DNA of 64,000 nucleotides from Bacteroidia bacterium (GTDB lineage: Bacteria > Bacteroidota > Bacteroidia > UBA4408). The stretch covers positions 14,616 through 78,615 of the forward strand of contig JAYWFU010000031.1 of the NCBI GenBank assembly GCA_043778625.1. Reading direction: 5' to 3'. Below are positions 2,609 through 44,208 of the stretch, one piece after another (the first letter of the stretch is position 1; the number at the start of each line of letters is the position of its first letter). The position numbers and the translations under genes were made by a program. The notes under the pieces are model-generated. The model searched no databases and was not told the origin of the DNA. It worked only from the letters and a program-made list of their open reading frames with translations.

Positions 2609-4702
2609 TGTTTTACCACTTTCTATTGTTTGTAATTCAATTTTCATAGCTGCGTGTTGTGGCAGGTTTAAGTTGGGGTCTTGGTTCATAATATCAATAG
2701 CGGTGTTGCGTGCTGCGATTAGTATTTGTTGGTCTTTGGCAAGGTCGGCTAGTTTAAAATTCATAGCTCCGCTTTGTTGCGTACCGTGTATATCGCCTGC
2801 GCCACGTAGTTTTAAATCTACTTCGCTTATTTTAAAACCGTCGTTAGTTTCGCACATGGTACTCATGCGTAATTTGCTATTAGCACTTAATTTAAACCCT
2901 GTAATAAGTACACAATAACTTTGGTCGGCTCCACGCCCCACACGCCCTCGTAATTGGTGTAATTGCGATAAGCCAAAACGCTCACTACTTTCAATAACCA
3001 TAACCGAAGCATTGGGTACATTTACACCTACCTCAATAACCGTGGTGGCTATCATAATGTGTGTTTCTCCTTTTATAAAACGTTGCATTGCAAATTCTTT
3101 ATCGGCAGCCGTCATTTGCCCATGTACTACACTTACACGATATTCGGGTTCAGGAAAAAAACTGGTAATGGTATCAAACCCCTGCATTAAGTTTTGAAAA
3201 TCGAGGGTTTCGTTTTCTTCAATTAGTGGGTACACTACGTAAATCTGTCGCCCCAACGCTATTTGTTCACGCATTAATCCATAGGCCATCAACCGTTTGT
3301 TTTCGGTATAGTGCATTGTTTTAATAGGCTTACGCCCTGCAGGTAGTTCGTCTATAACGGATATGTCCAAGTCGCCGTATAGTGTCATGGCTAGTGTGCG
3401 AGGTATTGGTGTGGCCGTCATTACTAACACGTGCGGTGGCGCTATGGTATTTTTTTTCCAAAGTTTAAAGCGTTGTTCTACCCCAAAGCGATGTTGCTCA
3501 TCGATAATGGCAATGGCAAGGTTTTTAAATTGCACTACCTCTTCAATAAGTGCGTGCGTACCAATAAGTATATTTAGTTTTCCTGATTTTAAATCGTTGT
3601 GAATAACCCGCCTATCCTTGGTTTTAGTACTGCCTGTAAGCAATGCTATGTTAATGGGTAAGTGTTGCAAAAGCTCGCTAATACCATTAAAATGCTGTGT
3701 AGCCAATATTTCGGTAGGTGCCATTAAGCAAGCCTGATAATTATTATCAATAGCTAATAACATACTCATTAACGCCACCACGGTTTTGCCACTACCTACA
3801 TCGCCCTGTATTAAGCGGTTCATGTGTTTGCCTTGCGCCATGTCTAACCTAATTTCTTTCAGTACGCGTTTTTGTGCGCCTGTAAGTTCAAACGGTAATA
3901 GTTTGTAAAAATCGTTAAAGTACGCGCCAACAATGCTAAATACGTGCCCAGGTATGTTTTGTAGGTTTAGTTTTTTTTGTTTGATGAGTTTGAGTTGCAA
4001 AAAAAACAACTCTTCAAATTTCACTCTATTTTGTGCATTAATAATACTATTGCTATTGCTGGGGAAATGCAGTTGCACTATAGCATCGGTGGCGTTCATT
4101 AAGCGGTATTGCTCCAGTATAGCAGGCGATAGCGTTTCGGGCAGTTGAATGTTTTTTTCGTTAATTACATTTACTAACAGTCGCACTAGTTTTGATATTG
4201 CTTTGCTATCTAATCCGCTAGTTTTCATACGTTCGGACGTATTGTAGGCTGGGTACAGCGGTATTTGTTGAGTTACAGTGGCTGGCGTTACCAATTCCAT
4301 TTCGGGGTGTACTATGCTAAACTTGCCTTTGTAATCAGTTATTTTGCCAAACACAATGTATTGATGCCCCGCTAATAAACTAGTGCGTAAGTATTTAATA
4401 CCCTGAAACCAAGTTAATTCAATACTTTCGGCGCCATCGGTTAATGTAGCAGTTAAGCGTTGGGCACGTGCCACACCTTGCAGTTGCAAGTTAGTTAGTG
4501 TACCTTTAAGTTGCACATAGGGCATATCGGGCGTTAGCTCGGCAATGGTATGAAACACTGACTTATCAATGTATTTGTACGGAAAATAGTACAGTAAATC
4601 GCCGTAGGTAAATATATTAGCCTCTTTTTTTAAAATAGTAGCACGCTGCTCGCCAACACCTTTGAGGTACGTTATAGGTTGAGCTAAAAATTGTGTTGGC
4701 AT
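2588..4702 (-). CDS. recG: ATP-dependent DNA helicase RecG
   Basis: 704 aa. N-terminal wedge region, Walker A GDVGSGKT, DEQHRFGV box and a C-terminal helicase domain (QLRGRVGRG). Confidence 0.95.
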   Translation of the reverse strand: MPTQFLAQPITYLKGVGEQRATILKKEANIFTYGDLLYYFPYKYIDKSVFHTIAELTPDMPYVQLKGTLTNLQLQGVARAQRLTATLTDGAESIELTWFQGIKYLRTSLLAGHQYIVFGKITDYKGKFSIVHPEMELVTPATVTQQIPLYPAYNTSERMKTSGLDSKAISKLVRLLVNVINEKNIQLPETLSPAILEQYRLMNATDAIVQLHFPSNSNSIINAQNRVKFEELFFLQLKLIKQKKLNLQNIPGHVFSIVGAYFNDFYKLLPFELTGAQKRVLKEIRLDMAQGKHMNRLIQGDVGSGKTVVALMSMLLAIDNNYQACLMAPTEILATQHFNGISELLQHLPINIALLTGSTKTKDRRVIHNDLKSGKLNILIGTHALIEEVVQFKNLAIAIIDEQHRFGVEQRFKLWKKNTIAPPHVLVMTATPIPRTLAMTLYGDLDISVIDELPAGRKPIKTMHYTENKRLMAYGLMREQIALGRQIYVVYPLIEENETLDFQNLMQGFDTITSFFPEPEYRVSVVHGQMTAADKEFAMQRFIKGETHIMIATTVIEVGVNVPNASVMVIESSERFGLSQLHQLRGRVGRGADQSYCVLITGFKLSANSKLRMSTMCETNDGFKISEVDLKLRGAGDIHGTQQSGAMNFKLADLAKDQQILIAARNTAIDIMNQDPNLNLPQHAAMKIELQTIESGKTNWSRIS

Positions 4703-4734
4703 ATATTTATTATTTGTGCAAATTTACATTTGAA

Positions 4735-5277
4735 ATGTTAAACAATCAACCTCAAATTGCTACTATTATTTTACGCAAAATTGTACCTGCTGATGCCCTC
4801 GTAATTACTACATTACGTAACACACCTCAAGTATTAAAGTATCTTGATGCAACTGTAATTACTAACGCTAAGCAAGCTAACACTTACATAGCCCAACTGC
4901 GTAACGAAAAAACTAATTATGCACGAGTCATAGTGTACAATGGTATATTGGTGGGAATTTGTTATTTAAAAGATTTTAATACCACGCATCGTTTTGCATT
5001 TATTACCTTTTATTTAAATAATAACTATTGGGGCAAAGGTATTATGCAACATGCGCTTACACACTTTATAAGTACTGCTTTTGTTGATATACCAGCCTTG
5101 CATCGTATTGAAGCGCAAGTACACGAGCATAACGAGGGGTCGTGTGCATTGCTTGCACGTATAGGTTTTACTAAGGAAGGAGAGGCTCGTAATAATTTTT
5201 TTGTAAACGAACAACCATTTAACTCGCAGGTGTACTCGCTCTTGCGTACTGATGTTGTTAATGCAGCTATAAAATAG
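4735..5277 (+). CDS. GNAT family N-acetyltransferase (RimJ/RimL-like)
   Basis: The layout is GNAT-like, with an acetyl-CoA-binding-like YWGKGIMQHAL segment. I prefer the ATG at 4735 over the GTG at 4693, which overlaps the recG start. Confidence 0.75.
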   Translation: MLNNQPQIATIILRKIVPADALVITTLRNTPQVLKYLDATVITNAKQANTYIAQLRNEKTNYARVIVYNGILVGICYLKDFNTTHRFAFITFYLNNNYWGKGIMQHALTHFISTAFVDIPALHRIEAQVHEHNEGSCALLARIGFTKEGEARNNFFVNEQPFNSQVYSLLRTDVVNAAIK

Positions 5278-5310
5278 TAGTTTTACTACCGTATAAAAAA
5301 CACACTGCAC

Positions 5311-6492
5311 TTGAAAATATTACAACTTTTACCTCGCTTTCCGTGGCCATTAAAAGATGGTGGAGCTATTGGGTATTATAATTTTACGCAAGCCTACATA
5401 GATGCAGGACACGAGCTTACCATAGCCGCTCTCAATACTAATAAGCACTATATTAATTATAACGATATACCTGAACAATTGTGTAATAAAGCTACTATAC
5501 ATTTGGTAGATATTAATACTGACATTAACAAAAAAGATGCACTTCTAAATTTGTTTACCACACAATCGTATAACATACAACGCTTTGTTAGCAAGCAATA
5601 CGAGCAATTAGTGGTAGATTTGTGTACTAATACTACCTACGATTTAATTGTATTTGAAAGCATATTTGTAGCCCCTTACTTAACTGCTATACGTGCCGTA
5701 ACACCTGCTAAATGTGTATTGCGCCAGCATAATGTAGAATTTAAAATATGGGAAACATTAGCCGATAATACCTCTTGGGGAGCTAAAAAAATGTATTTAA
5801 AATTACTAGCTAATCGCTTGTGTACGTTTGAAATTAAGGCCTGTAATAGTTTTGATACCGTGTTTCCAATAACGCCAACCGATTACGAAACATTAGTAAC
5901 CTGTGGCGTAACTACTCCCATGCACATAGTTCCGTTTGGTATTAATACCAAAAAAATGCCCAGTTACAAAGCGCCGCAAGGCATTACATTTTTTCACTTA
6001 GGTAGTATGGATTGGCAACCTAATCAATTAGCGGTGCAATGGTTTATCGATAACGTGTGGATACCTCTTGCACCACAATACCCTGAGGCTACGTTTACCA
6101 TTGCAGGTAGGCACATGCCCCCATATTTTATGCAGTACCATAATACTTATAACATACAGGTAGTGGGCGAAGTATCTAATGCCATTGAATTTATGCAAAG
6201 CCACGCAGTGCAAGTGGTACCATTATTTGCAGGCAGTGGCATACGTGTTAAAATAATAGAGGCCATGGCCTTGGGCAAATGTATTGTAGCTACACCGCTT
6301 GGTGCGCAAGGTATTAATTACACATTAGACGAAAATATATGTATAGCTGATGATACCGCCGATTTTTTAAAAGAAATAGTAACCCTTATCGAAAATCCCG
6401 AACGTATTATTACCATTGGAAAATCCGCTCAAGTAATAGCACAAACTGAATACAATATTGATGTATTAGCACAAAAAATAATCGACAATTGA
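5311..6492 (+). CDS. glycosyltransferase family 4 (GT-B fold)
   Basis: TTG start, 393 aa. The N-terminus (LPRFPWPLKDGGAIGYYN) and the C-terminal part (GSGIRVKIIEAMALGKCIVATPLGAQG) are typical of GT4/GT1 enzymes. Confidence 0.85.
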   Translation: MKILQLLPRFPWPLKDGGAIGYYNFTQAYIDAGHELTIAALNTNKHYINYNDIPEQLCNKATIHLVDINTDINKKDALLNLFTTQSYNIQRFVSKQYEQLVVDLCTNTTYDLIVFESIFVAPYLTAIRAVTPAKCVLRQHNVEFKIWETLADNTSWGAKKMYLKLLANRLCTFEIKACNSFDTVFPITPTDYETLVTCGVTTPMHIVPFGINTKKMPSYKAPQGITFFHLGSMDWQPNQLAVQWFIDNVWIPLAPQYPEATFTIAGRHMPPYFMQYHNTYNIQVVGEVSNAIEFMQSHAVQVVPLFAGSGIRVKIIEAMALGKCIVATPLGAQGINYTLDENICIADDTADFLKEIVTLIENPERIITIGKSAQVIAQTEYNIDVLAQKIIDN

Positions 6493-6960: not shown

Positions 6961-9900
6961 TTAATTTAATACGCTCAACTTTGCACGACCTAGTTTATTA
7001 CCATTTTGCAGGCGTATATAATACAGTCCGTTACTTAATCTACTAACATCTACCAGTTGTGTATACCCGCCAACAGCTTGTGAAGCATTACACACATTAC
7101 GTACTAATTTACCGTACATATCGTACACATCCAATTGTACATGTTGGCTAGCATCAGTATTAATGTAAGTAATATAAGCCAATCCAGAAGCTGGGTTAGG
7201 ATATATCTTTACGTCAATACCAGTAGTTGAGTTATTAATTATAGCGCCTTTGTTTTTAATACTTTGCACACCATTAGTGCCTACACTATCAATAACCTCT
7301 ACTGGCACTTGGCGTGTTTTGCCTTTGTAGGCTACACGAATAAAAGACTTCCCTTTTTTAATACCCTTAATAATATTGGCATTTATTTGGCTTACTACTT
7401 TAGTATTACCCATTGTAAACGCTACGCCTGGCATATTTGTTATATCAACAGCACCGTTACCTGCAAAGTAGCCTGTAACTTCAGTATTAAAGCTACTGCC
7501 TAAGGGTATGTATATTTTTTTAGGATATACGTGCATGCTATCTAATGTTAAGTTTTTAGTGTCAGTGATTAATGTTGCTGAGTCGGTAACGTAACTTGCA
7601 CTATCGTGTGCTGCTACTGCAATTTTAATTTTACCCACGTAATTGGTTGGTACAGTATAATTTACTTTATAATGATTAGATAATGAGTCGTAATACATTT
7701 CTTGCAAATCGTTAGCTTTTAATCCAACTAGTAGTGCAATTTTAGGAAAATTACCTGTACTCGACACCTCTATCGGAATTGTATCTCCCGGATTAACTGC
7801 AATTACTGGAGGTAGTTTTAACTTAACCGTTCCTAGGCCTTGATTAGTTACATTTACTTGGCTACTAAATTGTTGATTATACAATTTGCCTACTGTTGAA
7901 GTTAATACTTCAGGCGTAAAACCTAGTTTAGTAAAATCAGTACTTGTGGTTGGGTTATTATCAAGTAAACGTATCACTTCGTTAATAAACGAAGTATTGT
8001 CAGGAGAGCCTACATGTTGTTGTAATGTATCAAAACTGGTTAAGTAACTTCCGCTTAATCCTCCTGTTTGAGATTTAAGTGGTACAATTAAGTCTGATTC
8101 AGGCTGACCAAAAAGCCTATCATGAAATTCTCGCGCTGTTTCACCTAATTTTTTATATCCAAATAAAGTTCCGCCTATTGCAAAAGCCGTTGAGCCAAAT
8201 AAACTATTAAATGATGCTGAGGGCGTTGTGGAAACAATACAATGCGAAGGTACTGTATTAGCGTTTAAGCTTGCTCCGTTTAGATAGTTGGTTATTCCGT
8301 TACCATCAACACTCAAATCCTCAATGGCACCTGCATTAGCATCTTTACCAGCAAATTTCAAAATAAATTTAGTAAAGCCTGCATTACGTAATAAGTTGCC
8401 ACACTGGCTACCTGAGTGTGGGGTGTTAAGTGTAATAAGTGAACGTACATCGGTTTTTTTATTATTTTTCTTTGTTGTAAATTCGGAACTCTGTATGTAT
8501 GCTCGGGTAAGAATACCTCCCATACTATGCCCTACTACATCTACACTACCTGCGGAATATCCTGCGTCAACCGCTTTTTTAAGTAAGAATGTTATACCAT
8601 TGGGCACAACGTTTTTATTTGTTTCAAATTTTTGGTCATTACTTGTTGAGTAATCAACTCGGTGTAATATTGCATCAAAATAATTACTAGTACCTACTAA
8701 ATCAGATTCCATAATTGCAAATGCCGCCGCCTCCGACCATAAGCCATGTACCATCATTACAGGTGCTCTATAATAGCTAATCATACGAGTTTCTATAACG
8801 GTATTAGTAATTGTATTGTATACTTCTACCGAATCATCTTTTTTCACTCCATTAACATCTAAATACTCTGGGTGAGTTAACCTACCTTCAATTACGCCAT
8901 CTTCAGGAGGTGTATTCATAGTAAATTTACCCCACAATTCAGGCGAAGTAGTCGCATTTGAATTTTGAATTCTAAATGCAAAATCAGCAGCATTGGCACA
9001 TGTAGTGCATGACTCTGGAAATTTATATTTTATTATAGTAGCACTCGAACCATCGGCACATACTTTAAATGGCTTTTGGCTTGTAAAACCAGTTGCTTTC
9101 GATGACTGTTGAAAAATTACTTTACCTGAGTGTCGCCCTTTTTTACGTCCCCCCTCTACAAATATTTCATCCTCAGTAAGCGCATCGTTTATAAATGTAA
9201 TTACACCATCGTTAGGATCTGTTACTGTAATTGTAACAGAATCGGTATGTGTACTGCCATTGGCAGAAGTTATAGTTAACGTAACAGTAAATCTGCCCGT
9301 ATCATTAAAAGTATAACTAGGGTTTTGTACGCTCGACACATCTCCGTTCCCAAAATCCCAAGCCCAAGCTGTTGGATTGTTGGGAGATAAATCAGTAAAC
9401 TGAACGGTTAATTTAGCAGGTCCTTCGTACACGTCGGCTTCAAAATCTATTGAGTCGCTTGCGGCATCAATTACAGTAATAGTATATTCTTTGTAATCTG
9501 ATCCATTACCATTATCAACCGTTAAGCGTACTGTAAACACACCAGTATCATTAAATGTATAACTCGGGTTTTGGTCCGTTGAGTTATCGCCGTTACCAAA
9601 ATCCCAGTTCCAGCTGGTAGGGTTGTTGGTTGAAGCATCAGTAAACTGTACTGTTAAGGAAGCCTCTCCCGAATTAACATCGGCTGTAAAATCAGCCACT
9701 GGCGCTATAGTAGAAGCATTAACTGTAATTGTAGTGGTAGAACTTGTAATTGAACCATTACCATTATCAACGGTGAGCGTTACTTGGTACGTTCCTGCGC
9801 TATCAAAAGTGTAATATAAATTTTGATCGGTAGAAACTACCACACCATCTACTTCCCAGCTCCATGTGGTAGGGTTTTCGGTAGAGGTATCATCAAAACT

Positions 9901-11364
9901 AACAGTTAGCGGGGCATCGCCAGAGGTAGCATCGGTAGTAAATTGTGCAATACATTGTGCCGTAGCTGAGTTTACCGTAATAGTAGTAACTGATGAGGTG
10001 CTAGTACCTATTGCATTAGTTACCGTTAGCGTAACACTGTATGTACCTGGGGTTTGATACACATTAGATGGATTAGGGTTAGTACTGGTATTACCATCGC
10101 CAAAATCCCACAACCAACTTGTGGGAGTGTTTAGCGATTGGTCTTCAAAATTAACTAATAGTGGTGCGTCTCCACCATAATTATCAGCCGCAAACTGTGC
10201 TGTTGGTGCTATTGCATTTACGGTTATGGTTACCGTGTAAGCTGTGCTACTTCCAGTAGCATTAGTAGCTATTAACGACACGGTGTAAGTACCTGGTGTG
10301 GTAAATGTATTTGATGGGTTTTGTGCTGTGCTGGTGTTACCATCGCCAAAATCCCACGCCCAGCTTGTGGGGCTGTCAGTTGAGTTATCAGTAAAATTAA
10401 CGGTTAATGGGGCATCGCCCGAAGTAACATCGGGCGTAAAGTTAGCTGTGGGTGCAGGAGGTGCGTTTACGGTAATGGTAACGGTATAAGCTGTGCTACT
10501 GCCAATAGCATTAGTAGCTATTAACGACACGGTATAAGTACCTGGTGTGGTAAATGTATTAGACGGATTTTGTGATGTGCTGGTGTTACCATCGCCAAAA
10601 TCCCATGCCCAGCTTGTGGGGCTGTCCGTTGAGTTATCAGTAAAATTAACTGTTAGCGGAGCATTACCCGAAGTAACATCGGGCGTAAAGTTAGCGGTGG
10701 GTGCAGGAGGTGCGTTTACGGTAATGGTAACGGAATAAGTATCAGTACCATCAGCGTTGGTTACGGTAAGTAATACGGTGTAAGTGCCTACAGTAGTAAA
10801 TGTATTAGACGGATTTTGTGCTGTGCTCGTATTACCGTCGCCAAAATCCCACGCCCAACTCGTAGGGTTGTTGGTAGAATTATCAGTAAAGTTAACGGTT
10901 AATGGGGCATCGCCCGAAGTAACATCGGGCGTAAAGTTAGCCACAGGAGGTGCTGCAGCGGCGGCTACCGTACCACAATCGCTACTGCAAGCGTAATCGG
11001 TAACATAATCGCCATAAATTGGGTCTCCGTTAGCATCATAACCTGCTATTGCGTTAGCGTCGTAATAGTAATCATCAACACTTACACAGTGCTGCGCACC
11101 ATCGTTAGTTACGGTAAATTGTGAGCCTGAGCCAGCTCCACCGTCCCAACTATACGAAATAGTACCTTGCCCGCTACCCGATGCACTAAGGGTAGAAGTA
11201 CCATCACCGTTATCAAACACAGCTACTGAAACCGAACACTGCGCCACTGAAGTAGCGTAAGATGTAATTAAAAAAACAAAGGCAAGTGTAAGTTTAACAA
11301 GTACATTTACTATTTTATTTTGCTTTAATACTGAAGAGTAAATTTTAGTCATGATTTTTTTCAA
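6961..11364 (-). CDS. large secreted multidomain protein: 7 PKD domains, alpha/beta-hydrolase (lipase-like) domain, Ig-like domains and a T9SS C-terminal sorting domain
   Basis: It has a signal peptide. Seven W(A/L/S/N)WDFG(D/N)G-type PKD repeats are present. The nucleophile elbow VVGHSMGG lies near 8511-8545. The C-terminus IYPNPASGLAYITY...GLYYIRL is a T9SS CTD. Confidence 0.9.
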   Translation of the reverse strand: MKKIMTKIYSSVLKQNKIVNVLVKLTLAFVFLITSYATSVAQCSVSVAVFDNGDGTSTLSASGSGQGTISYSWDGGAGSGSQFTVTNDGAQHCVSVDDYYYDANAIAGYDANGDPIYGDYVTDYACSSDCGTVAAAAAPPVANFTPDVTSGDAPLTVNFTDNSTNNPTSWAWDFGDGNTSTAQNPSNTFTTVGTYTVLLTVTNADGTDTYSVTITVNAPPAPTANFTPDVTSGNAPLTVNFTDNSTDSPTSWAWDFGDGNTSTSQNPSNTFTTPGTYTVSLIATNAIGSSTAYTVTITVNAPPAPTANFTPDVTSGDAPLTVNFTDNSTDSPTSWAWDFGDGNTSTAQNPSNTFTTPGTYTVSLIATNATGSSTAYTVTITVNAIAPTAQFAADNYGGDAPLLVNFEDQSLNTPTSWLWDFGDGNTSTNPNPSNVYQTPGTYSVTLTVTNAIGTSTSSVTTITVNSATAQCIAQFTTDATSGDAPLTVSFDDTSTENPTTWSWEVDGVVVSTDQNLYYTFDSAGTYQVTLTVDNGNGSITSSTTTITVNASTIAPVADFTADVNSGEASLTVQFTDASTNNPTSWNWDFGNGDNSTDQNPSYTFNDTGVFTVRLTVDNGNGSDYKEYTITVIDAASDSIDFEADVYEGPAKLTVQFTDLSPNNPTAWAWDFGNGDVSSVQNPSYTFNDTGRFTVTLTITSANGSTHTDSVTITVTDPNDGVITFINDALTEDEIFVEGGRKKGRHSGKVIFQQSSKATGFTSQKPFKVCADGSSATIIKYKFPESCTTCANAADFAFRIQNSNATTSPELWGKFTMNTPPEDGVIEGRLTHPEYLDVNGVKKDDSVEVYNTITNTVIETRMISYYRAPVMMVHGLWSEAAAFAIMESDLVGTSNYFDAILHRVDYSTSNDQKFETNKNVVPNGITFLLKKAVDAGYSAGSVDVVGHSMGGILTRAYIQSSEFTTKKNNKKTDVRSLITLNTPHSGSQCGNLLRNAGFTKFILKFAGKDANAGAIEDLSVDGNGITNYLNGASLNANTVPSHCIVSTTPSASFNSLFGSTAFAIGGTLFGYKKLGETAREFHDRLFGQPESDLIVPLKSQTGGLSGSYLTSFDTLQQHVGSPDNTSFINEVIRLLDNNPTTSTDFTKLGFTPEVLTSTVGKLYNQQFSSQVNVTNQGLGTVKLKLPPVIAVNPGDTIPIEVSSTGNFPKIALLVGLKANDLQEMYYDSLSNHYKVNYTVPTNYVGKIKIAVAAHDSASYVTDSATLITDTKNLTLDSMHVYPKKIYIPLGSSFNTEVTGYFAGNGAVDITNMPGVAFTMGNTKVVSQINANIIKGIKKGKSFIRVAYKGKTRQVPVEVIDSVGTNGVQSIKNKGAIINNSTTGIDVKIYPNPASGLAYITYINTDASQHVQLDVYDMYGKLVRNVCNASQAVGGYTQLVDVSRLSNGLYYIRLQNGNKLGRAKLSVLN
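9215..10950 (-). repeat. tandem array of PKD-domain coding repeats; the three N-terminal units are near-identical with a 249-bp period
   Basis: Antisense ORFs at 10298, 10547 and about 10796 are offset by exactly 249 bp and have almost identical sequence. Further along the array the units diverge. Confidence 0.85.
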
Positions 11365-15092: not shown

Positions 15093-16724
15093 TTATTGCA
15101 GTGTTATTATTTTAAATGTAGGTGTTGTTTCATTTAATTCTTGTTTTAAGTCATCAATTATTTTAAACCCAAATTTATTAATGTATTGAAATATATTTTC
15201 GTAGCGTTCTTGCAAACCATTATTCGGAAAATACTTTTCTTTTTGTTTCAAGGCTTGTGTTATTCCGTTAGCGTGTTGTTGTTTTAATGCTTTGTTTACC
15301 TTGTTATTTAAGGCATGTAAGCCATCAATAGTTTTTTTGAGTTCGGCGTTGGCTATGGGAGCAAGAGTTTTATCAATGGTGGCTAACTCGTTACTTAATG
15401 CACTATATATAGTTTGTAATTGCTGTTGATAGTTATTGGTATTAAATTCTTTTTCGGTATTTAGCGCAATATATTTTTTGGTTATTACTTCATCAGTCTC
15501 AAACAAATCGTTAACGTTAAGTTGCAGGGCAGTAAGTTTTTCGTTAGCGGGAACATCTATCAACAAGGCCGAATGGCGCAATAACAACTGCGGAAACGGA
15601 GTTTTGTAATAATCAAATAATGGCTTTAGTTGCAACCAATATGCCAACTCTCCGCCACCGCCCACATAGGCAATGTTAGGCAATATTGTTTCTTGATACA
15701 CGGGACGTAGCAATACATTGGGGCTGATGTTAGCCGTATTGTTGTGCAATTGTTGTAGGGTAAATTCAGCGTTGCCTGCGGTATAATTAGTGCCTTGTGC
15801 TATAATGCGTTGGCGAGTATTATTGTGTAGTAGAAATAAATTTATTGGGCGCGGAGTTACTTGTATGCTTTTGTAGCCTTTGTTAGTAAGGCTTTCGATA
15901 GTTTTGGTGGTTATACTATACGACGGACTGGTGGTTAATTCCTCGTTAATTATAGTGCTAAATGCGTATTTTAATTCAGGAGTATTTGCATCAATTATTA
16001 CTACGCCATATTGCCCGAATAGCTCGTGTACCAAGCGTTGTGTGGCTTGCGCTAAGTTGTTGGTTGTGGCATAACAACTATCAAATAAGTTAAGTATTGC
16101 CGAAGAATGTTCTGTAGTACCTAATAATGCAACTAGTTGCTCCCTAAGTTGGGGTATATTATCAAGTGTAATAGCACCTACTGCATTGCCTGCTATTGCT
16201 GTAGCTGTTAATTTTTTATTATGGATATTAAAATGATTTACTTCTTCAAAATCATGATCTTCGGTGGCCATCCAATACACAGGTATAAAGTGGTGTTGTG
16301 GGTGCGCCGTGTTAAGTTGCTCAGCATAATTAATTGCAGTAATTATTTTATACACAAAGTACAATGGCCCTGTCATTAAGCATAATTGATGCCCTGTAGT
16401 TACGGTAAATGTATTGGTATTGAGTAGTGTAGTAAGCTGTGTTTCAATGCGTTGTTTGTGGGTAGTGGTATGTTGCCACAACGCGTTATACTGCTTAGTT
16501 AGCGCAATGTGTAACGCACTACGTTGTGTGGTGCTAAAGTTAGCGCGCTGCGTAATGCGCTCATTTATTGCTTGGGTATTAGTAGTAAGGTCGTTTAGTT
16601 TTTCATCATTAGTTAATAAATCAATTACTAACGGATTAAAAAACTGAATGACATCAAAGCCAATGGTACTGTGTGTTTTCAATAGAGGCGAGCTGTTATT
16701 TGATTTTTTTTTCGGTTTTAACAA
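15093..16724 (-). CDS. bshC: bacillithiol biosynthesis cysteine-adding enzyme BshC
   Basis: 543 aa. The conserved block AYVGGGGELAYWLQLK and the coiled-coil C-terminus are typical of BshC/YllA. Confidence 0.8.
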   Translation of the reverse strand: MLKPKKKSNNSSPLLKTHSTIGFDVIQFFNPLVIDLLTNDEKLNDLTTNTQAINERITQRANFSTTQRSALHIALTKQYNALWQHTTTHKQRIETQLTTLLNTNTFTVTTGHQLCLMTGPLYFVYKIITAINYAEQLNTAHPQHHFIPVYWMATEDHDFEEVNHFNIHNKKLTATAIAGNAVGAITLDNIPQLREQLVALLGTTEHSSAILNLFDSCYATTNNLAQATQRLVHELFGQYGVVIIDANTPELKYAFSTIINEELTTSPSYSITTKTIESLTNKGYKSIQVTPRPINLFLLHNNTRQRIIAQGTNYTAGNAEFTLQQLHNNTANISPNVLLRPVYQETILPNIAYVGGGGELAYWLQLKPLFDYYKTPFPQLLLRHSALLIDVPANEKLTALQLNVNDLFETDEVITKKYIALNTEKEFNTNNYQQQLQTIYSALSNELATIDKTLAPIANAELKKTIDGLHALNNKVNKALKQQHANGITQALKQKEKYFPNNGLQERYENIFQYINKFGFKIIDDLKQELNETTPTFKIITLQ

Positions 16725-17433
16725 ATTTGCCGTTAGCGTAATAATCTACTTCGCTTAGCACACCAAGTTCGGTGTAATAAAACACCGTACCGTTACCATT
16801 AGTTAAAGTGCCTTTATCTAGTGGCTTACCAGCGTTATCAAAGTTGGAAACTATTTCCACAATATTATCAGCCACGTAACGCTTTTCGCTCCATAGCTGT
16901 CCGTTATCGTGGTTAATAATTTCCATGCCCTCTTTTTTACCTGCTAGGTAATTATTGGTAGCGGCTATTTTTCCGTTTTCAAAATACACTACGTTTGTAC
17001 TGTCTCGGTGTCCGTGTTTGTAATGCCCTAGGCTTTGTAATTTGCCGCTAGGGTAGTAGGTAATGTAGTTGCCGTTTAATTTTCCTTTAAATGTTTCAGC
17101 GTCTATTTTAAGTATTCCACCTTTGTAAAACTCCTTACGATACTCGTGCTTGTGTTTGCCCACACGCTTATCAGTGTGTACAAAACCATAAGCACCGCTA
17201 CCCCCATCTACATAATAAAAATTGCGCTGTGCTATTAATTTACGCTTCACATAAAAATCTTCCCACAGTAGTTTTTTAGTTTCTTTTTCGCTCACTCTAA
17301 TAATCATAGTGTCTTTGGCTACGGAGTACACTGTATCTTTTTTGCCTTCGGGAGCTTTACTGTTATCCACCACTTGTGCGCTAAGTTGTAGTGTAGCCAA
17401 GGCAAGCGTAATTATTGTATAAATTCTTTTCAT
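16696..17433 (-). CDS. MORN-repeat-variant (YwqK-like) secreted protein
   Basis: Signal peptide ending in AQ. Repeated YYPSGKL / YFENGKI / NHDNGQL motifs. Confidence 0.7.
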   Translation of the reverse strand: MKRIYTIITLALATLQLSAQVVDNSKAPEGKKDTVYSVAKDTMIIRVSEKETKKLLWEDFYVKRKLIAQRNFYYVDGGSGAYGFVHTDKRVGKHKHEYRKEFYKGGILKIDAETFKGKLNGNYITYYPSGKLQSLGHYKHGHRDSTNVVYFENGKIAATNNYLAGKKEGMEIINHDNGQLWSEKRYVADNIVEIVSNFDNAGKPLDKGTLTNGNGTVFYYTELGVLSEVDYYANGKFVKTEKKIK

Positions 17434-17448
17434 CGGTTATTTTAGTTA

Positions 17449-18090
17449 TTATAAATTTTGTAGTACGATTTTTAAATCGTTTTCAAACTCTTGAAATGCT
17501 GTTAGTTGACGAAGTGCATTATAATCTTCAATATACTCAGCTACTAAATGCGTTCTTTTATGCGGATTAAAATTTTTTATTTTTCTGCCCGTTAATTCGC
17601 TACAGCTAATTAATAACTCGTGTAAGTATGCTTTAGGTTGTTTTTGTTTTTCTAACTCTGTAATTTTAGGCAAACTAATTGGTTTACTATAATTTGGATT
17701 ATCAGCTGCTTTCTTTATTGCATTTTCGTTTATTAGCAACCATGTTTCCATCATTTTTACAGGCACAATTACTACTATATTGTTTGTGTTTTCAATTCCT
17801 TGACTATTTATTATTTCGTTTTTTCGCTGTTGAATAGTTTTTTTAATATCCGTTACCGACTCCCCATCTCTATGATAAATTAAAATATCACAGCAATAAT
17901 AGTGTTGCGCTAATTTTATTCTTTCCGCTACTTCGCTAGCTTTGGGAGGATTTTTAAAACTACTAAAATCAGCAAATTCACCCTCGTTAGGCACTGTAGG
18001 ATATAAGTCGTTTAGCAACCATTTTATTATTGTTACTAATATTTTATCGGAACTTCCGTCGCCAATAAGTGTAAAATTAATTTGCTTCAT
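17449..18090 (-). CDS. small Toprim-like / DUF4276-like partner protein of the upstream ATPase
   Basis: 213 aa, starting 5 nt after the ATPase stop. It has an N-terminal strand FTLIGDGSSD, a central acidic cluster ILIYHRDGES and a PVKMMETWLL motif. This layout resembles DUF4276/RloB/DUF4435 Toprim partners. The family call is an inference. Confidence 0.5.
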   Translation of the reverse strand: MKQINFTLIGDGSSDKILVTIIKWLLNDLYPTVPNEGEFADFSSFKNPPKASEVAERIKLAQHYYCCDILIYHRDGESVTDIKKTIQQRKNEIINSQGIENTNNIVVIVPVKMMETWLLINENAIKKAADNPNYSKPISLPKITELEKQKQPKAYLHELLISCSELTGRKIKNFNPHKRTHLVAEYIEDYNALRQLTAFQEFENDLKIVLQNL

Positions 18091-18095
18091 GTGTG

Positions 18096-19538
18096 TTAGT
18101 ATTCAATTTTTAATTGATTTACATGTTCACGAACCGTTTTTTTCACTTTTGTAGAATTGACAAGAGTTATATTTTTTTCTTTTTTAACATCTAAATTATC
18201 TAAGTAGCCATTAATTTCAGCTAAATTAGTTGTTAATACTAAGTTACTATTTGTTTTCCAAGTATCTTGTAGTGCTACAAACGTAGTGGCTTTAACTTTT
18301 CGTTTAAATTCATCCATATACACTTCATACTCTTTAGCCAAGTATAAACTTTCGTGAGGTACTGAGCTCACCACTATTGGTGAATGTGTATTAATAATTA
18401 CTTGGCGCAACGGATTATCTTCATCCACCTCATAATCAGTATCGGTAGCCATTCCTTCAAGTAGTTCAATCATTTCATTAATTTTTTTTGGATTGATTCC
18501 GTTCTCAGGTTCTTCCAAACAAATTAATCCACTACCCATATTATCTTGTTCAATTATTGCTAAAGCCAAGAAGCGTAATGTGCCGTCCGATAACGATTGC
18601 GCAGGCAATACTAAGCCGTCTTTAAATGTTAATTGAAGCGTGAGCAAGTCTCTCTTATCATCTTTATCAACCGACACATAACTTACATTACTAATTAATT
18701 CTTTTAATTTGTTAGTGAGCGTTTGATATGTTCTACCTTGTTCTTTTTCTACTGATTGTAAGCGAAACAAAGTGGCAGGTAAGTTTGCACCATTTGCTTG
18801 TATTTCAGCATTTTTTATTTCGTAAGTTGAGTTTGGATTACGCAATGCACTTGGCTCAAATTGTAACATCATCCAATTACGCATTTCTTGTCGTGCCAAA
18901 AATGCTGTGGGAGTAACCGAGTCTGCTTTTGACAACAACGTACGAGGCATTTTTTTTGCGAAAAATTTAGTTGTACTGCCTTGATTACGATCTTGGTGTA
19001 GTCTTAACTTATCTCCCTCTGTAGAAATAAACGGTGTACCAGTACCTCTACCCAAAAAAACTGAGTCTTTCCACTCTTTTTTATGATTAAAATAAATATT
19101 TTTTCGTGCCTCCCTTGATTTGATAGGAATTAACTCTTCTTTTATTATTTCAATAGGTTCTTTATCATTATCATATAAATTCAAATTAAGTTCTAGCGTA
19201 TATTTTAAGCTCGTTGTTGTAGCCTTCGATTTTTGCCCCAAATCATCTTCTGCTTCTTGAGGAACAATCATATCTACTTCAAACTTCATGGTAGTTAAAT
19301 ACTCATCTCCATTTTTAAAGAAAATATCTTTAAAATTAGCGTGTTTTTGGTTTTCGCTTCTTACTGATTTAGCTGCCTCTAAAATTGTTTTATCTGATAG
19401 TTGAGATAAAAACATAAGAGCATCAAAAAAATTAGATTTACCCACGGCATTTGCTCCTGCAATGCACGTAAATGGTCCAAAATATAGTTCGGTATCCAAC
19501 AGGCTTTTAAATCCGTTTATTTTTATCCGTGTAATCAT
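18096..19538 (-). CDS. ABC/SMC-like AAA ATPase (AAA_15/AAA_21 type, OLD/AriA/AbiL-like)
   Basis: MITRIKINGFKSL N-terminus, Walker A GANAVGKS (19434-19457), signature-like LSDGTLRFLALA, Walker B LICLEEPENGINP and H-loop INTHSP. A long insertion separates Walker A from the signature. Confidence 0.85.
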   Translation of the reverse strand: MITRIKINGFKSLLDTELYFGPFTCIAGANAVGKSNFFDALMFLSQLSDKTILEAAKSVRSENQKHANFKDIFFKNGDEYLTTMKFEVDMIVPQEAEDDLGQKSKATTTSLKYTLELNLNLYDNDKEPIEIIKEELIPIKSREARKNIYFNHKKEWKDSVFLGRGTGTPFISTEGDKLRLHQDRNQGSTTKFFAKKMPRTLLSKADSVTPTAFLARQEMRNWMMLQFEPSALRNPNSTYEIKNAEIQANGANLPATLFRLQSVEKEQGRTYQTLTNKLKELISNVSYVSVDKDDKRDLLTLQLTFKDGLVLPAQSLSDGTLRFLALAIIEQDNMGSGLICLEEPENGINPKKINEMIELLEGMATDTDYEVDEDNPLRQVIINTHSPIVVSSVPHESLYLAKEYEVYMDEFKRKVKATTFVALQDTWKTNSNLVLTTNLAEINGYLDNLDVKKEKNITLVNSTKVKKTVREHVNQLKIEY

Positions 19539-19543
19539 TTATT

Positions 19544-20053
19544 TTATACTTTTTCTGTAGTTAAGTATTTCCCCAACCAAGTGTTACGTGCAGCTACTTG
19601 CCAAGCATTAGTTAGTTGTGCTAATGCGCTTATTGTATTGTCAAACACTAGGGTTGATGCACTAATAGTACCGTTGGCTATGAGCTGCTCGGCTTGCGTA
19701 AATTTAAAATTCGCTACCGTATTGTTAGCTGTTAGGTAGTACACAAGGCTACGATCAGTTAATGTTATTTGTAAGTTGGTTTCTAATTGTTTAATTACCC
19801 GTACCGATGCATCAATGCTACAACCACTGGCTTGGCTTAATTGTTCGTCTACCGCTATTAGTATAAATTGTTGATGCTCAAGCGTATAGCTTGCTTTAAG
19901 TTCGTTGCCATGTGCTTTCCAACCGTTTACAAATGTGGTTAGTGTGTTGTGCAGTACTTGAGTTTGCGCAACCGTAAATGGCTGTGTACTAGCGTATATC
20001 CACAAGCGTGAGCTAGGTGCTAGGGTAGCAAAGTTAGTGGGTAGAGTAATCAT
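19544..20053 (-). CDS. conserved Bacteroidota hypothetical protein (family often mislabelled ABC transporter ATPase)
   Basis: The pattern SRLWIY...W.AHG..L.A...FILIAVDE...ASGCSIDASV is recognised from memory only. Confidence 0.55.
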   Translation of the reverse strand: MITLPTNFATLAPSSRLWIYASTQPFTVAQTQVLHNTLTTFVNGWKAHGNELKASYTLEHQQFILIAVDEQLSQASGCSIDASVRVIKQLETNLQITLTDRSLVYYLTANNTVANFKFTQAEQLIANGTISASTLVFDNTISALAQLTNAWQVAARNTWLGKYLTTEKV

Positions 20054-20143
20054 GGGAGCTATTTAATTTTAAACTCAAATTTACTACGATAATTGAGTTA
20101 TTTAGTATTTTTTGTTAGCCACTAATTAACAACTGTTATAGGG

Positions 20144-27109: not shown

Positions 27110-27703
27110 ATGTTAAACAAAAACAAACTTCCGTTATTAATAATTATTGTAATGTGTGTAGAGTTAATGATATACCTATGGGCTGTTGGCACTACCGAAA
27201 CAAGTGTAGTTTTTGATAAATGTGCGCGAAATTCGGGAAGGGTATCTTCATTTTTTAATGTAGCTATATTAGGAATGATTGGTTTTTATGGGCTTAAAAA
27301 TTGTTATACTAATACTACTAAAAAAGATGCCTTGGCTGTTTTAATTACTTTATTTGCCGTTAATCATTTAATTCATTTTTTTTATGTGTATCAAAATTTT
27401 ATGCATCACGCACATCTATTAATTGTTTGGGATAATAAGCACGGCTTTGTTACCTTTATTGGTATAGTAACTATTCCTATAGTAGTGTGGCGTGTTAAAC
27501 AATTAAATGGCCTACTGTATTTTACTATTATTGCACACCTATTTAACGTTAGTTATTTTATTATAAAAACATTTCACTCCAAAATAAAACCTGAGCACCC
27601 TGCCTATCACAATCAATTAGGTATTGTAGTTACAAGTGCCGCACTTATGTATGTTTTATACGGCATTATTAAGCATCACAATAAATTAAGTACAACTCGT
27701 TAA
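27110..27703 (+). CDS. hypothetical polytopic membrane protein
   Basis: 197 aa with about six hydrophobic helices. It lies inside the cassette bounded by the duplicated prmC 5' ends. No family recognised. Confidence 0.5.
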   Translation: MLNKNKLPLLIIIVMCVELMIYLWAVGTTETSVVFDKCARNSGRVSSFFNVAILGMIGFYGLKNCYTNTTKKDALAVLITLFAVNHLIHFFYVYQNFMHHAHLLIVWDNKHGFVTFIGIVTIPIVVWRVKQLNGLLYFTIIAHLFNVSYFIIKTFHSKIKPEHPAYHNQLGIVVTSAALMYVLYGIIKHHNKLSTTR

Positions 27704-30735: not shown

Positions 30736-31422
30736 CTAGTATTGCTTAATTTTTCTTTTAAGCCTATTTACTTCATTTTCCCATTCTCTTACTGAACTAA
30801 GAGCTTCTACTATTTGTTGTTGTTTGTCAGAATAAGACCTTAACAGATGAAACTGTTGAACTTCTTCCAAATTTATTCTTGCAGCACCTAAATTTATAAT
30901 TGCTTGATCATATTCAGATTTTAATCCTTCAAGTTCTGCTTGTCTTTGAGCCGCATTAGCTATTTTTTTTTGCCTTTCTTCCTCTGCCAATCTAGCTATC
31001 TCAATTTGCTCTTGTTCTTTAATTTTAGCGTTTTGCTTTTCTAATTGTAGTTGTATTTCTGTTTGCTGAGCTTGTTGCTTAACGTATAATGTTATGCCGA
31101 TTACACTTATCAATAAAAAACTAGCAATAACAACTATAATTATATTTTTTTTGTTAGTGCTTTTTTCTGTGGTTATAACAGTATTTACTATGGTTTTTTT
31201 TTCAGAAAGTGGCGGTGGTATAATTGGTGCTTTTGTTAATAAAGGGGGCGGAATACTTTTGAATATTTCTTTTAAATCTTCAATATCATTGGCTTTCATC
31301 CAGCTTTCCGCACCCTCGAACCATACTAAAGTATCTCTAGTAATGTTTTGTTCTTTTAATTCAGTTATCGAATAAGGTCCTTTTTGTATATCGTCTATGT
31401 GAATAAAATAGTTTTGTATCAT
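30736..31422 (-). CDS. GYF_2 (DUF4339) domain - TM - coiled-coil protein
   Basis: The N-terminus YFIHIDDIQKGPYSITELKE...LVWFEGAESWMKANDIEDLKEIF is GYF_2-like. One TM (IIIVVIASFLLISVIGITLYV) is followed by a Q/E/K-rich coiled coil. Confidence 0.65.
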   Translation of the reverse strand: MIQNYFIHIDDIQKGPYSITELKEQNITRDTLVWFEGAESWMKANDIEDLKEIFKSIPPPLLTKAPIIPPPLSEKKTIVNTVITTEKSTNKKNIIIVVIASFLLISVIGITLYVKQQAQQTEIQLQLEKQNAKIKEQEQIEIARLAEEERQKKIANAAQRQAELEGLKSEYDQAIINLGAARINLEEVQQFHLLRSYSDKQQQIVEALSSVREWENEVNRLKRKIKQY

Positions 31423-36468: not shown

Positions 36469-37014
36469 ATGTTTGAATATATTAAAGACACCATAACACT
36501 TACTGAAATTAAAAAAACATTATTACTAAATAAAACAGTAATAGATATTGAGGGAGAGGCTTTTTATTATTCTAAAATAACCTTGGGTTGTAGCATTGTA
36601 TTTCAATTATTTTTGGGCTTGGGTTCGCTTTGTGTATTTCCTTTTTTTGAAAATATATGGCTTTTTTTGTACGTTTTTTTGATGGCTTTAGCAATCATTT
36701 ACAACCTTTTAAATGACACAATACCCAAGTATTTAAATACACGCCCTATTTTTATTTTAAAGCAAAAACAACTGTATTACACGCAACAAAATCAGTGGTA
36801 TAATATAGCCGAATGCCACGTAAGTATAGATAGTGTTGGTAAGTATAATTATTCGGGTACCTTAAAAATACATTCTTATTTAGATTCTAATAATACAATA
36901 TCAGAAAACATTTGGCATATCTCGAACGATGATACATTAATCAGTAGAATAAAAAAAATCAAAGGCATTACAAATTTCTTTGATTATGAACAAGAGCGTC
37001 AAAGCCGTAAATAA
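36469..37014 (+). CDS. hypothetical membrane protein
   Basis: 181 aa with two central hydrophobic helices. No family recognised. Confidence 0.4.
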   Translation: MFEYIKDTITLTEIKKTLLLNKTVIDIEGEAFYYSKITLGCSIVFQLFLGLGSLCVFPFFENIWLFLYVFLMALAIIYNLLNDTIPKYLNTRPIFILKQKQLYYTQQNQWYNIAECHVSIDSVGKYNYSGTLKIHSYLDSNNTISENIWHISNDDTLISRIKKIKGITNFFDYEQERQSRK

Positions 37015-39129: not shown

Positions 39130-39795
39130 ATGGAATTAATTTGCCCTAATTGTAAAACCGAAATTTTAAATAGCAATGTTAGCATAGCTGAAGCCGTTGC
39201 TAGTTGCGTTAGTTGTAGCAAGTCGTTTAAAATAGCTGAGTTAACTAACAATGAACAAATAATACGAATACAAAAACCGTTTTATTCTAAAATACAAATT
39301 GAGGATAACTTAGGCTCACACACGATTAAAATGAAAATTGCTGATTGGGATAATCATAAAAAAGACTTGCTAATAATTATTTTCAGTAATTTTTTTGTTT
39401 GGTTCATGTATTATTTACTGATATTGAATTCTAAAAACAGTAAAGATTTTGCTTTAATTTTTCCCACTATTATTCTTGGCTTTTTTATATTAATAACGAC
39501 ACTTTCTTTTTTTAATTTTTGGTATAGAGTTTTGGGTCAAATACAAATTAATTTTAATACAGAGTTTGTATCAGTTAAATGGAGTTGTTTAAAACTGTGT
39601 TATACTCAACAGAAAAATACAATTGACCTAACAACAATAACTGAAGTCCCTATTTATAATGGACAAAAACGCGGTGTAGAATTTTGTTTTAAAAAAAGTG
39701 AACGAATTAAATTTGGGTACTATTTGCAACAAGAAGAACGCAAATGGCTTATTGGGGAGTTGAATGAACTAAAGGAAAAATATCAACTGCATTAA
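39130..39795 (+). CDS. zinc-ribbon / 2-TM protein, paralogue A
   Basis: N-terminal CPNC...CVSC, two TM helices, and C-terminal EERKWLIGELNELKEKYQ. The start lies 1 nt after the M20 stop. Confidence 0.6.
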   Translation: MELICPNCKTEILNSNVSIAEAVASCVSCSKSFKIAELTNNEQIIRIQKPFYSKIQIEDNLGSHTIKMKIADWDNHKKDLLIIIFSNFFVWFMYYLLILNSKNSKDFALIFPTIILGFFILITTLSFFNFWYRVLGQIQINFNTEFVSVKWSCLKLCYTQQKNTIDLTTITEVPIYNGQKRGVEFCFKKSERIKFGYYLQQEERKWLIGELNELKEKYQLH

Positions 39796-39796
39796 C

Positions 39797-40471
39797 ATGA
39801 AATTAATTTGCCCTAATTGCAAAACCGAAATTTTAAATAGTAGCATTAATATAACTGAAGCAATAGCCCAGTGTAATGCTTGTAACGAAGTATTTAAAAT
39901 AGCTGATTATTTAAATAAAGATGAGGAGGTAGAAAGAATACCCAAGCCTACTTTTACAAAAGTAAACATTGAAGATAATTTTGATTCACATACTATCACT
40001 ATTCCAACCATTGGCTGGAATAGTAATAGTATTTACTCCCTTATATTTGCTTGTTTTTGGAATTCTATTTCTTTTGCAAACTTTTTTGAGGCGTACCAAA
40101 AAAACAAGATTGACATTATGACTTTTATTTTTCTAATTATAGGAGTCTTCACTTTTTTATTTTTTTTATTTACCCTTTTAGCTAAAATAGAAGCTGACTT
40201 TAATAGAGATATTATTTCAGTATCACGAATTTTTTTAGGCTTAAATTATAAAAAAAAGAAAAGTAGTAAATGGTTAGAAAGTATAACTGAAGAGATAGCT
40301 TATAGGACAGGAAGTCGACAAGAAAGAGCTGTATATGCTATATCACTTAATTTTTGTGATAATTCAACGATTAGATTTGGGACTAAGTTAAATGAAGAAG
40401 AACGCAAATGGCTTATAGGAGAATTGTACGAAATGAAAAAGAAATATCAAACCTCAAAAGATAAATTTTAA
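39797..40471 (+). CDS. zinc-ribbon / 2-TM protein, paralogue B
   Basis: N-terminal CPNC...CNAC, two TM helices, and C-terminal EERKWLIGELYEMKKKYQ. The start lies 1 nt after the paralogue A stop. Confidence 0.6.
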   Translation: MKLICPNCKTEILNSSINITEAIAQCNACNEVFKIADYLNKDEEVERIPKPTFTKVNIEDNFDSHTITIPTIGWNSNSIYSLIFACFWNSISFANFFEAYQKNKIDIMTFIFLIIGVFTFLFFLFTLLAKIEADFNRDIISVSRIFLGLNYKKKKSSKWLESITEEIAYRTGSRQERAVYAISLNFCDNSTIRFGTKLNEEERKWLIGELYEMKKKYQTSKDKF

Positions 40472-44051: not shown

Positions 44052-44059
44052 TACATTTG
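44052..44059 (+). promoter_or_regulatory. -7 promoter element (TAnnTTTG) for the SRP RNA
   Basis: TACATTTG lies 4-5 nt upstream of the predicted 5' end of the RNA. Confidence 0.5.
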
Positions 44060-44062
44060 CAG

Positions 44063-44161: not shown

Positions 44162-44208
44162 TTTTAATACCATTAGTATAGTATCAATATATTTTTAACA
44201 CTAAAAAC

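Follow-up and report, generated by a model that had tools for sequence, protein, structure and literature searches.

A probable HEC-01-type candidate anti-phage cassette at a variable gene junction in a Bacteroidia bacterium

Two adjacent minus-strand genes in a 64,000-nucleotide stretch of a Bacteroidia bacterium contig (GenBank assembly GCA_043778625.1, contig JAYWFU010000031.1, forward-strand positions 14,616 to 78,615; hereafter the window) encode an ABC-type ATPase of 480 amino acids (aa) and a small protein of 213 aa. The explanation that best accounts for this pair, and that we consider probable, is a stand-alone two-gene candidate anti-phage cassette of the HEC-01 type. HEC-01 (Hma-embedded candidate 01) consists of an ABC ATPase and a DUF4276/TOPRIM-like partner and was described as embedded in Hma defense systems (Payne et al. 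2024, bioRxiv 10.1101/2024.01.29.577857). The locus is a member of a known, uncharacterized candidate system and does not represent a new kind of system.

Assignment of the gene pair to HEC-01

The original prediction had described a two-gene cassette resembling split OLD and PARIS systems, and its gene positions, strand, and spacings match exactly the open reading frames (ORFs) that we found. The ATPase is encoded at 18096-19538(-) and its partner at 17449-18090(-), with 5 nt between them; 5 nt separate the 480-aa gene from the upstream gene, which encodes a 169-aa protein, and 15 nt separate the 213-aa gene from the downstream MORN gene. In PADLOC-DB v2, the top of 79 matches for the ATPase was PDLC04184 HEC-01A (E = 3.4e-92; 307.9 bits), with residues 1-417 aligned to model positions 1-417 of 464. 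The rival ATPase models were far weaker, including AriA (6e-27 and 4e-21), mad3 (3e-20), AbiLi (3e-18), NsnB (4e-16), and Old (4e-12). The small protein was matched by PDLC04210 HEC-01B (E = 3e-20) over residues 1-213, corresponding to model positions 1-212 of 217; among its further PADLOC matches, nine of ten were HEC-01B models and two were PDC-M25B. Both HEC-01 profiles are therefore matched by two neighboring minus-strand genes, of which the ATPase gene comes first and is followed by a 5-nt gap, and ATPase-then-partner adjacency is also found in the comparison sequences L091-L094 and L089. Four unrelated genomes carry a 492- to 501-aa ATPase gene followed by a gene for a partner of ~213 aa, in the same order and with a gap of 1 to 5 nt; their neighborhoods are unrelated to one another, mostly housekeeping, and not related to defense. 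The pairing of ATPase and partner is obligate.

The ATPase carries, in order, Walker A (GANAVGKS, residues 28-35, including K34), an ABC signature (LSDGTLRF, residues 316-323), Walker B with its catalytic Glu (LICLEEPENG, residues 338-347, including E342/E343), and an H-loop (NTHSP, residues 383-387), all of which had been quoted in the original prediction. Inserts totaling ~280 residues separate Walker A from the signature. Four orthologous ATPases from pairs in other genomes (60 to 66% identical) show no variation in these motifs, and the Pfam families AAA_21 (1.8e-27; 97.7 bits against a gathering cut-off of 27) and AAA_15 (1.3e-17; 65 bits against 32.1) are both matched. Pfam and PADLOC thus agree with the broad classification proposed earlier, namely, an ABC-type (AAA_21/AAA_15) ATPase with a DUF4276-related small protein, belonging to the ATPase-plus-TOPRIM class of defense systems. 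Among sequences in the Protein Data Bank (PDB), the only match of the ATPase was the N terminus of an OLD-family (class 2) nuclease (6p74; E = 1.6e-4). The ABC fold of HEC-01A is taken from the description of the system (10.1101/2024.01.29.577857). Phage records yielded a single near-full-length relative of the ATPase (35% identity, 82% coverage), at 9279-10445 of the unannotated record GenBank MT836135.1, a contig from human feces.

The window pair resembles HEC-01 in gene order, in tight spacing, in the combination of an ABC ATPase with a TOPRIM-assigned partner, and in the best profile matches of both genes. It differs in context, as the discovery context of HEC-01 is embedding in Hma, restriction-modification, or other defense systems, whereas the window pair stands alone amid the genes for BshC, MORN, S41, RseP, LysC, and LysA. 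Such embedding describes how HEC-01 was discovered and is not needed for its detection. Within HEC-01, the pair belongs to a subtype with a long ATPase (480 to 500 aa) and a partner of the DGSSD/HRDxE type, and not to the canonical-DUF4276 subtype.

Comparison with related defense systems

Membership in PARIS, OLD, or AbiL, the systems with which the original prediction had compared the pair, did not hold in the Pfam, PADLOC, and NCBIfam scans, in which the HEC-01 models were best. Of the other systems considered, MADS also combines an AAA_21-type ATPase with a DUF4276 protein, and MAD3 is the best NCBIfam match of the ATPase (E = 7e-45), with MAD4 a weak match of the partner. The scores are, however, far under the equivalog cut-offs (153.9 versus 420 bits for MAD3 and 16.6 versus 160 bits for MAD4), and the window neighborhood contains no mad1, mad2, mad5-8, or methyltransferase gene. 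MADS was rejected on these sub-cut-off scores and on the absence of the mandatory MAD6-8 neighbors. In MADS itself, deletion of the homologous mad3 or mad4 lowers defense, and the methylase gene mad5 can be deleted only when mad2 or mad3 is deleted as well (10.1101/2023.03.30.534895); this genetics ties the Mad3-Mad4 module to both defense and self-toxicity.

PARIS, in which AriA, the sensor ATPase, sets free the TOPRIM nuclease AriB (PMC11464382), is the best-understood mechanistic analogue of the window pair. In both, the ATPase is split from a small effector, which is of the TOPRIM class in PARIS and probably so in the window pair, and the AriA models do match the window ATPase. AriB is about 35 kDa and belongs to DUF4435, whereas the window partner has 213 aa and no DUF4435 or AriB match; for this reason, and given that AriA scored 6e-27 against 3e-92 for HEC-01A, PARIS was rejected. 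OLD and the Gabija protein GajA contain an ABC ATPase of the same broad clade, as reflected in the 6p74 match and the weak Old model. In these proteins, ATPase and Toprim form one chain, whereas the window pair is split into two ORFs by a stop codon and a 5-nt gap, the matches are partial (Old, 4e-12), and no GajB-like helicase partner is present; OLD/GajA was rejected on these grounds. AbiL and the Menshen NsnB/NsnC-DUF4276 systems join an AAA_15/21 ATPase to a small Toprim-superfamily partner (RloB or DUF4276), but their matches to the window ATPase are far weaker than those of HEC-01, and the NsnA/NsnC architecture of Menshen is not seen at the locus. AbiL was rejected because of the weak AbiLi score and because RloB was matched by only 1 of 120 members of the partner subfamily (E = 0.0094).

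An accessory cassette at a variable junction

Two contigs related to the window, L088 (Logan SRR8820264) and L089 (JGI 3300080850), were found via relatives of the 169-aa flank gene; a metagenome scan for further relatives of this gene yielded two distant short contigs only. The features of the locus are the following.

18096..19538, minus strand: HEC-01A, 480-aa ABC-type ATPase (AAA_21/AAA_15); from PADLOC PDLC04184, Pfam, and motifs
17449..18090, minus strand: HEC-01B, 213-aa divergent DUF4276-related, probably Toprim-like putative effector; from PADLOC PDLC04210, conservation, and an AlphaFold2 (AF2) model
17438..19557, no strand: window-specific segment of 2,120 bp (the cassette); from blastn against L088
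19544..20053, minus strand: gene for a 169-aa conserved Bacteroidota hypothetical protein, the upstream host flank and left anchor of the variable site
16696..17433, minus strand: MORN-repeat protein gene, the downstream host flank and right anchor of the variable site
20076..20083, minus strand: Bacteroidota-type -7 promoter element TAAATTTG; from a motif scan of the gap between the S41 and 169-aa genes

L088 has the gene order RseP, S41, 170-aa gene, MORN, BshC, LysC, LysA and no cassette. Its flank proteins are 82 to 99% identical to those of the window (85% at the nucleotide level), and in a blastn comparison the homology stops at 19558 and resumes at 17437, so that 2,120 bp of the window (17438-19557) correspond to 27 bp in L088. 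On the left, the break lies within the final few codons of the 169-aa gene, where the C-terminal residues of the protein differ from those of its relatives; on the right, it lies 4 nt ahead of the MORN ATG. The 169-aa gene is cassette free in L088 (83% identity) and in L096-L098. The MORN protein (93% identical in L088 and 68% in L089) is encoded directly after the 169-aa gene in L088 and after the resident cassette in L089.

In L089, the flank proteins of which are 58 to 68% identical to those of the window, the same 169-aa/MORN junction holds a 369-aa ATPase and a 218-aa canonical DUF4276 protein (2.6e-53) at positions 3685-5452. This pair represents a different HEC-01 subtype (PDLC04175, 4e-130; PDLC04188, 9e-71); its ATPase is only 26 to 33% identical, locally, to the window ATPase, and its partner has no BLASTP match to the window partner. 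The original prediction of an accessory cassette is thus borne out by an empty site of 27 bp in one relative and a different HEC-01 cassette at the same junction in another.

The window proteins are closer to cassettes of other families than to that of L089. Compared with pairs from unrelated genomes, the ATPase is 60 to 66% and the partner 48 to 55% identical; such cassettes occur in Spirosomataceae and Prolixibacteraceae (48 to 66%), and partners of ~50% identity occur as far away as Limnohabitans. Because the window and L089 cassettes are each closer to cassettes found elsewhere, at least one horizontal acquisition or replacement must have taken place. No integrase, transposase, or tRNA is present at the cassette site. 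An 8-bp sequence, TAAAATAA, occurs at both 17437 and 19539, and it was considered as a target-site duplication and rejected as a chance match, with the motif occurring 39 times in the window and 9.4% of random pairs of gene-start windows sharing at least 8 nt. The different subtype that L089 carries at the 169-aa/MORN junction suggests a cassette-exchange hotspot without mobility genes.

The AT richness noted earlier is real but modest. The GC content of the two genes is 30.4% and 33.0% (22% and 24% at third codon positions [GC3]), compared with 37.2 ± 4.5% (GC3, 32.0 ± 6.6%) for the 49 genes of the window, which places the pair ~1 to 1.5 standard deviations (SD) below the mean, and about eight other genes of the window are as low. 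For the whole cassette, the value is 32.2%, against 37.0% for the rest of the window, and the cassette has a lower GC content than its flanks in five of six genomes.

These data also bear on a different history, in which the cassette is ancestral and vertically inherited at the junction, was deleted in L088, and was replaced in situ or diverged rapidly in L089. Two of the three known lineages hold a HEC-01 cassette at exactly this junction, mobility genes and a significant target-site repeat are lacking, the GC deviation is small, and the very tight gaps and missing promoter of its own are what long residence would leave behind. On the other hand, the window and L089 subtypes differ and have closer kin in other families, so that at least one horizontal replacement is needed in any case, and three lineages are too few to settle the ancestral state. 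We regard vertical inheritance as somewhat unlikely.

The flanking genes had been described as an interrupted string of housekeeping genes. Pfam agrees with the identities given, with Orn_DAP_Arg_deC (lysA-like), AA_kinase plus ACT (lysC), BshC, and MORN_2 on the MORN side and the 169-aa hypothetical protein, Peptidase_S41, and Peptidase_M50 (RseP) on the other. The conservation of the string does not extend beyond close relatives. In 80 Bacteroidota genomes found via BshC (36 to 42% identity), the other genes of the window occurred within 10 kb in none (0/80), so the string is lineage specific, and these genomes carry no information on the presence or absence of the cassette; the best BshC match among 185,579 GTDB species-representative genomes was 42% identical and had no neighbor genes in common with the window. 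The source belongs to a poorly sampled Bacteroidota lineage that is known only from a few metagenomes.

Conserved residues of the small protein

The small protein gives a DUF4276 (PF14103) match below the Pfam gathering threshold (21.1 versus 30.2 bits), which covers residues 84-206 on profile positions 76-191, i.e., the C-terminal half. Since 108 of the 120 subfamily members examined give weak DUF4276 matches (the best being 1.1e-7), the subfamily can be placed as a divergent branch of DUF4276; judged by these profiles, the window protein is part of that branch and not a strict Pfam DUF4276 member. Homologues are numerous. A search returned 281 matches at 90% clustering, mostly ~50% identical, many from Bacteroidota and even one from a Limnohabitans, and an exhaustive profile search collected 1,992 clusters (50% identity) at E ≤ 1e-3, of which 549 were found at E ≤ 1e-30.

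Conservation was assessed in an alignment of 134 representatives, each having only 30 to 52% identity with the window protein. At position 11, every representative has an acidic residue (123 D and 11 E), D15 occurs in 132 of the 134, and H73, R74, and D75 are invariant, followed by an always acidic position 77 (E in 123, D in 11); E115 is found in 133 representatives, and W117 is invariant. The strings FTLIGDGSSD, IYHRDGES, and METWLL, which had been singled out in the original prediction, are present in the window protein and contain family-invariant positions, so that they are not chance strings. The motif set [D/E]GSSD…HRDx[E/D]…MExW is common to about 2,000 protein clusters. Two earlier suggestions do not survive this comparison. 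The supposed loss of an N-terminal catalytic Glu is a conservative, family-wide D/E choice at position 11 and not a degeneration, and the protein is not an undescribed variant, because its subtype already has its own models in PADLOC v2 (PDLC04184/PDLC04210), in addition to the ~2,000 clusters at 50% identity. That the motifs of the ATPase and the acidic cluster of the small protein are so strictly conserved shows, at the level of aligned residues, that the predicted activities of both proteins are under selection.

Fold and chemistry of the small protein

An AF2 model of the small protein (pLDDT, 92.5; pTM, 0.89) comprises an N-terminal half with the order beta1 (residues 4-9), alpha1, beta2 (35-39), alpha2, beta3 (69-73), alpha3, and beta4 (105-108) and a helical C-terminal half. 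The conserved acidic residues D11/D15, D75/E77, and E115 sit at the C-terminal ends of the predicted strands beta1, beta3, and beta4. In Toprim domains, these strand ends bear E, DxD, and one more acidic residue (PMC12065111); the pattern of the small protein is analogous (D for E and DxE for DxD) without being the canonical motif. In the literature, HEC-01B was placed in TOPRIM on structural grounds, its metal site being one that BpOLD has as well (10.1101/2024.01.29.577857), and DUF4276 and RloB were placed in the Toprim superfamily (PMC12065111). Based on these two papers, the small protein is probably a Toprim protein.

Several results weigh against reading the pair as an anti-phage cassette with a Toprim effector. 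The HEC-01 representative of Payne et al. gave no protection in Escherichia coli (10.1101/2024.01.29.577857). Phage and plasmid collections contain almost no members of the family (2 records each), and none was found in a scan of IMG/VR viral contigs, so that no transfer vector emerged from these records. The cassette lies outside any defense island, which was ruled out because the other low-GC genes tested in the window gave no PADLOC match. The source is a metagenomic population represented by seven contigs from several samples, and these are 100% identical over the cassette, with no within-population polymorphism. As for the small protein, a Foldseek search of the model against PDB and BFVD gave no match at E ≤ 1e-3 and no Toprim among the top 50, profile hidden Markov models (HMMs) from three alignments found no relatives among PDB sequences, and the hhalign comparison with an alignment of canonical DUF4276 proteins fell short of significance (E about 0.2 with both narrow and broad subfamily profiles).

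With respect to activity, one HEC-01 representative was reported in a cold-seep study to confer protection on E. coli B against one or more of the phages T4, T5, and T7 (10.1101/2024.09.26.614923). The published reports on HEC-01 activity conflict, and both concern representatives other than the window pair; surveys still class HEC-01 as a candidate system.

The structural and profile negatives are the basis for an alternative in which the small protein is not a Toprim nuclease, so that the DGSSD/HRDxE/MExW subfamily would have another chemistry or a non-nuclease role and the mechanism would be unlike that of OLD or PARIS. The sub-threshold DUF4276 match confined to the C-terminal half agrees with this alternative, as do the invariant residues H73, R74, R89, W117, and K153, none of which corresponds to a residue of the classic Toprim motifs. 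What Foldseek returned instead were generic three-layer alpha/beta folds, such as lumazine/riboflavin synthase, low-molecular-weight protein tyrosine phosphatase (LMW-PTP), RpiB (2ppw), WrpA (5f4b), and small GTPases. As a control, the canonical DUF4276 protein of L089 was modeled likewise (pLDDT, 87.5); its model has the same order of secondary-structure elements as that of the window protein, and it also gave no Toprim match and the same generic folds. Because this control fails equally, the Foldseek negative reflects the insensitivity of the method. The single stretch aligned by hhalign pairs PVKMMETWLL with PYIQLHEFEGLLF, which sets MMETWLL opposite HEFEGLLF. Given also that the acidic residues are placed where Toprim has E, DxD, and E/D, that Glu does occur at position 11 in 11 of the 134 representatives, and that two papers assign HEC-01B and DUF4276 to Toprim, we consider a non-Toprim partner unlikely. 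Since the hhalign comparison with DUF4276 is not significant, the nuclease assignment rests on motif placement and on the literature.

A more far-reaching proposal joins two claims, i.e., that the DGSSD/HRDx[E/D]/MExW branch of HEC-01B is an effector of distinct chemistry and that the 169-aa/MORN junction is a mobility-gene-free hotspot at which subtypes are swapped via recombination in the flanks. The chemistry in question would involve the invariant His-Arg that adjoins the acidic pair, along with R89, W117, and K153. That both claims hold jointly seems doubtful to us.

Expression, proposed mechanism, and alternative functions

A motif scan found no Bacteroidota -7 element immediately before the ATPase gene, and the stretch from the 169-aa gene to MORN lacks a terminator-like site on the minus strand. 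Ahead of the 169-aa gene, the sequence block containing TAAATTTG is conserved in L088. Because of these three observations, the cassette is likely to be transcribed by read-through from the upstream host gene, with TAAATTTG as the candidate promoter. The 169-aa gene lies outside the HEC-01 system but probably supplies the transcription of the cassette.

Modeled on PARIS, OLD/Gabija, and the genetics of MADS, the most likely mechanism would be that of a sensor ATPase that controls a nuclease. The ATPase would oligomerize and keep the small protein inactive, and the large inserts between Walker A and the signature would sense a phage-derived trigger, upon which ATP binding or hydrolysis would activate or release the small protein. 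As a putative metal-dependent nuclease with D11/D15, D75/E77, and E115 as its acidic cluster, the small protein would then cut DNA or tRNA and thereby stop phage replication or host growth. Between genomes, the cassette probably moves horizontally as a promoter-poor two-gene unit without mobility genes of its own, and different HEC-01 subtypes now sit at the 169-aa/MORN junction in related lineages.

The same two genes could also form a selfish, toxin-antitoxin (TA)-like addiction module that provides no anti-phage benefit. A compact two-gene unit with a sporadic distribution, low GC content, and housekeeping neighborhoods instead of defense islands would fit such a module, as would the HEC-01 representative of Payne et al. 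that did not defend its host. The Pfam label of AAA_21 names the AbiEii toxin and type IV TA systems, although this label is the name of a family and not a tested function. Addiction modules thrive on plasmids and phages, from which the family is nearly absent. Moreover, HEC-01 was discovered through its embedding in defense systems, one representative was reported to be protective (10.1101/2024.09.26.614923), and the homologous Mad3 and Mad4 add to defense (10.1101/2023.03.30.534895). A pure addiction module is therefore quite unlikely in our view.

A housekeeping DNA-maintenance module resembling RecF/RecR (i.e., an SMC-like ATPase with a Toprim protein), which the weak RecF and SMC_N matches of the ATPase and the position of the pair among core genes with which it is probably cotranscribed might suggest, is very improbable, as these matches cover the P-loop N terminus only and fall far under the cut-offs, the best ATPase matches are all to ATPases of defense systems, and the pair is absent from L088 despite flank proteins that are 82 to 99% identical.

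Neighboring genes and other features of the window

Homologues of the 169-aa protein carry the labels "ABC transporter ATPase" (UniRef) and "MnmC" (JGI). The protein, which lacks any Pfam domain, is shorter than either function would require, and both labels are therefore probably propagated misannotations. For BshC (15093-16724, minus strand), the mechanically called ORF of 543 aa starts with TTG and has 29 nt in common with the end of the MORN gene. On the source contig, the BshC gene is called at 529 aa, and alignments with relatives begin at residue 15; the true start therefore probably lies farther downstream.

Farther away, a gene at 6961-11352(-) encodes a protein of 1,463 aa with seven PKD repeats, a lipase/esterase-like domain, and a type IX secretion system (T9SS) C-terminal sorting domain; part of this gene has a GC content of 0.45 to 0.48, markedly above that of its surroundings. 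The only Rfam matches at gathering level in the window were a small signal recognition particle (SRP) RNA of the Bacteroidales type (105.7 bits) at 44057-44163(+) and one tRNA at 52848-52919(+).

Five ORFs of very low GC content (0.27 to 0.30) are located at 39130-39795(+), 39797-40471(+), 27110-27703(+), 36469-37014(+), and 49451-50044(+), the first two being an adjacent pair that encodes 221 and 224 aa. Pfam and PADLOC searches gave no match for these five, which may be other accessory genes. Two further low-GC genes, at 30736-31422(-) (228 aa) and 53720-54235(-) (171 aa), each encode an N-terminal GYF_2 domain (E about 1e-13).

Implications

HEC-01 is among the more abundant candidate defense systems in environmental surveys (10.1101/2024.09.26.614923 and another survey), and the long-ATPase subtype to which the window pair belongs corresponds to a large and very divergent branch of DUF4276. 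For mutagenesis of this subtype, the invariant residues are now defined, i.e., K34 and E343 in the ATPase and D11, D15, H73, R74, D75, E77, and E115 in the partner. The junction between the 169-aa and MORN genes, with its three states (the window subtype, another subtype, and empty) and without mobility genes, is a modestly new element. The locus is a clean natural example that combines an insertion, an empty site, and an alternative subtype, and it shows the two genes moving as a self-sufficient unit outside defense islands.

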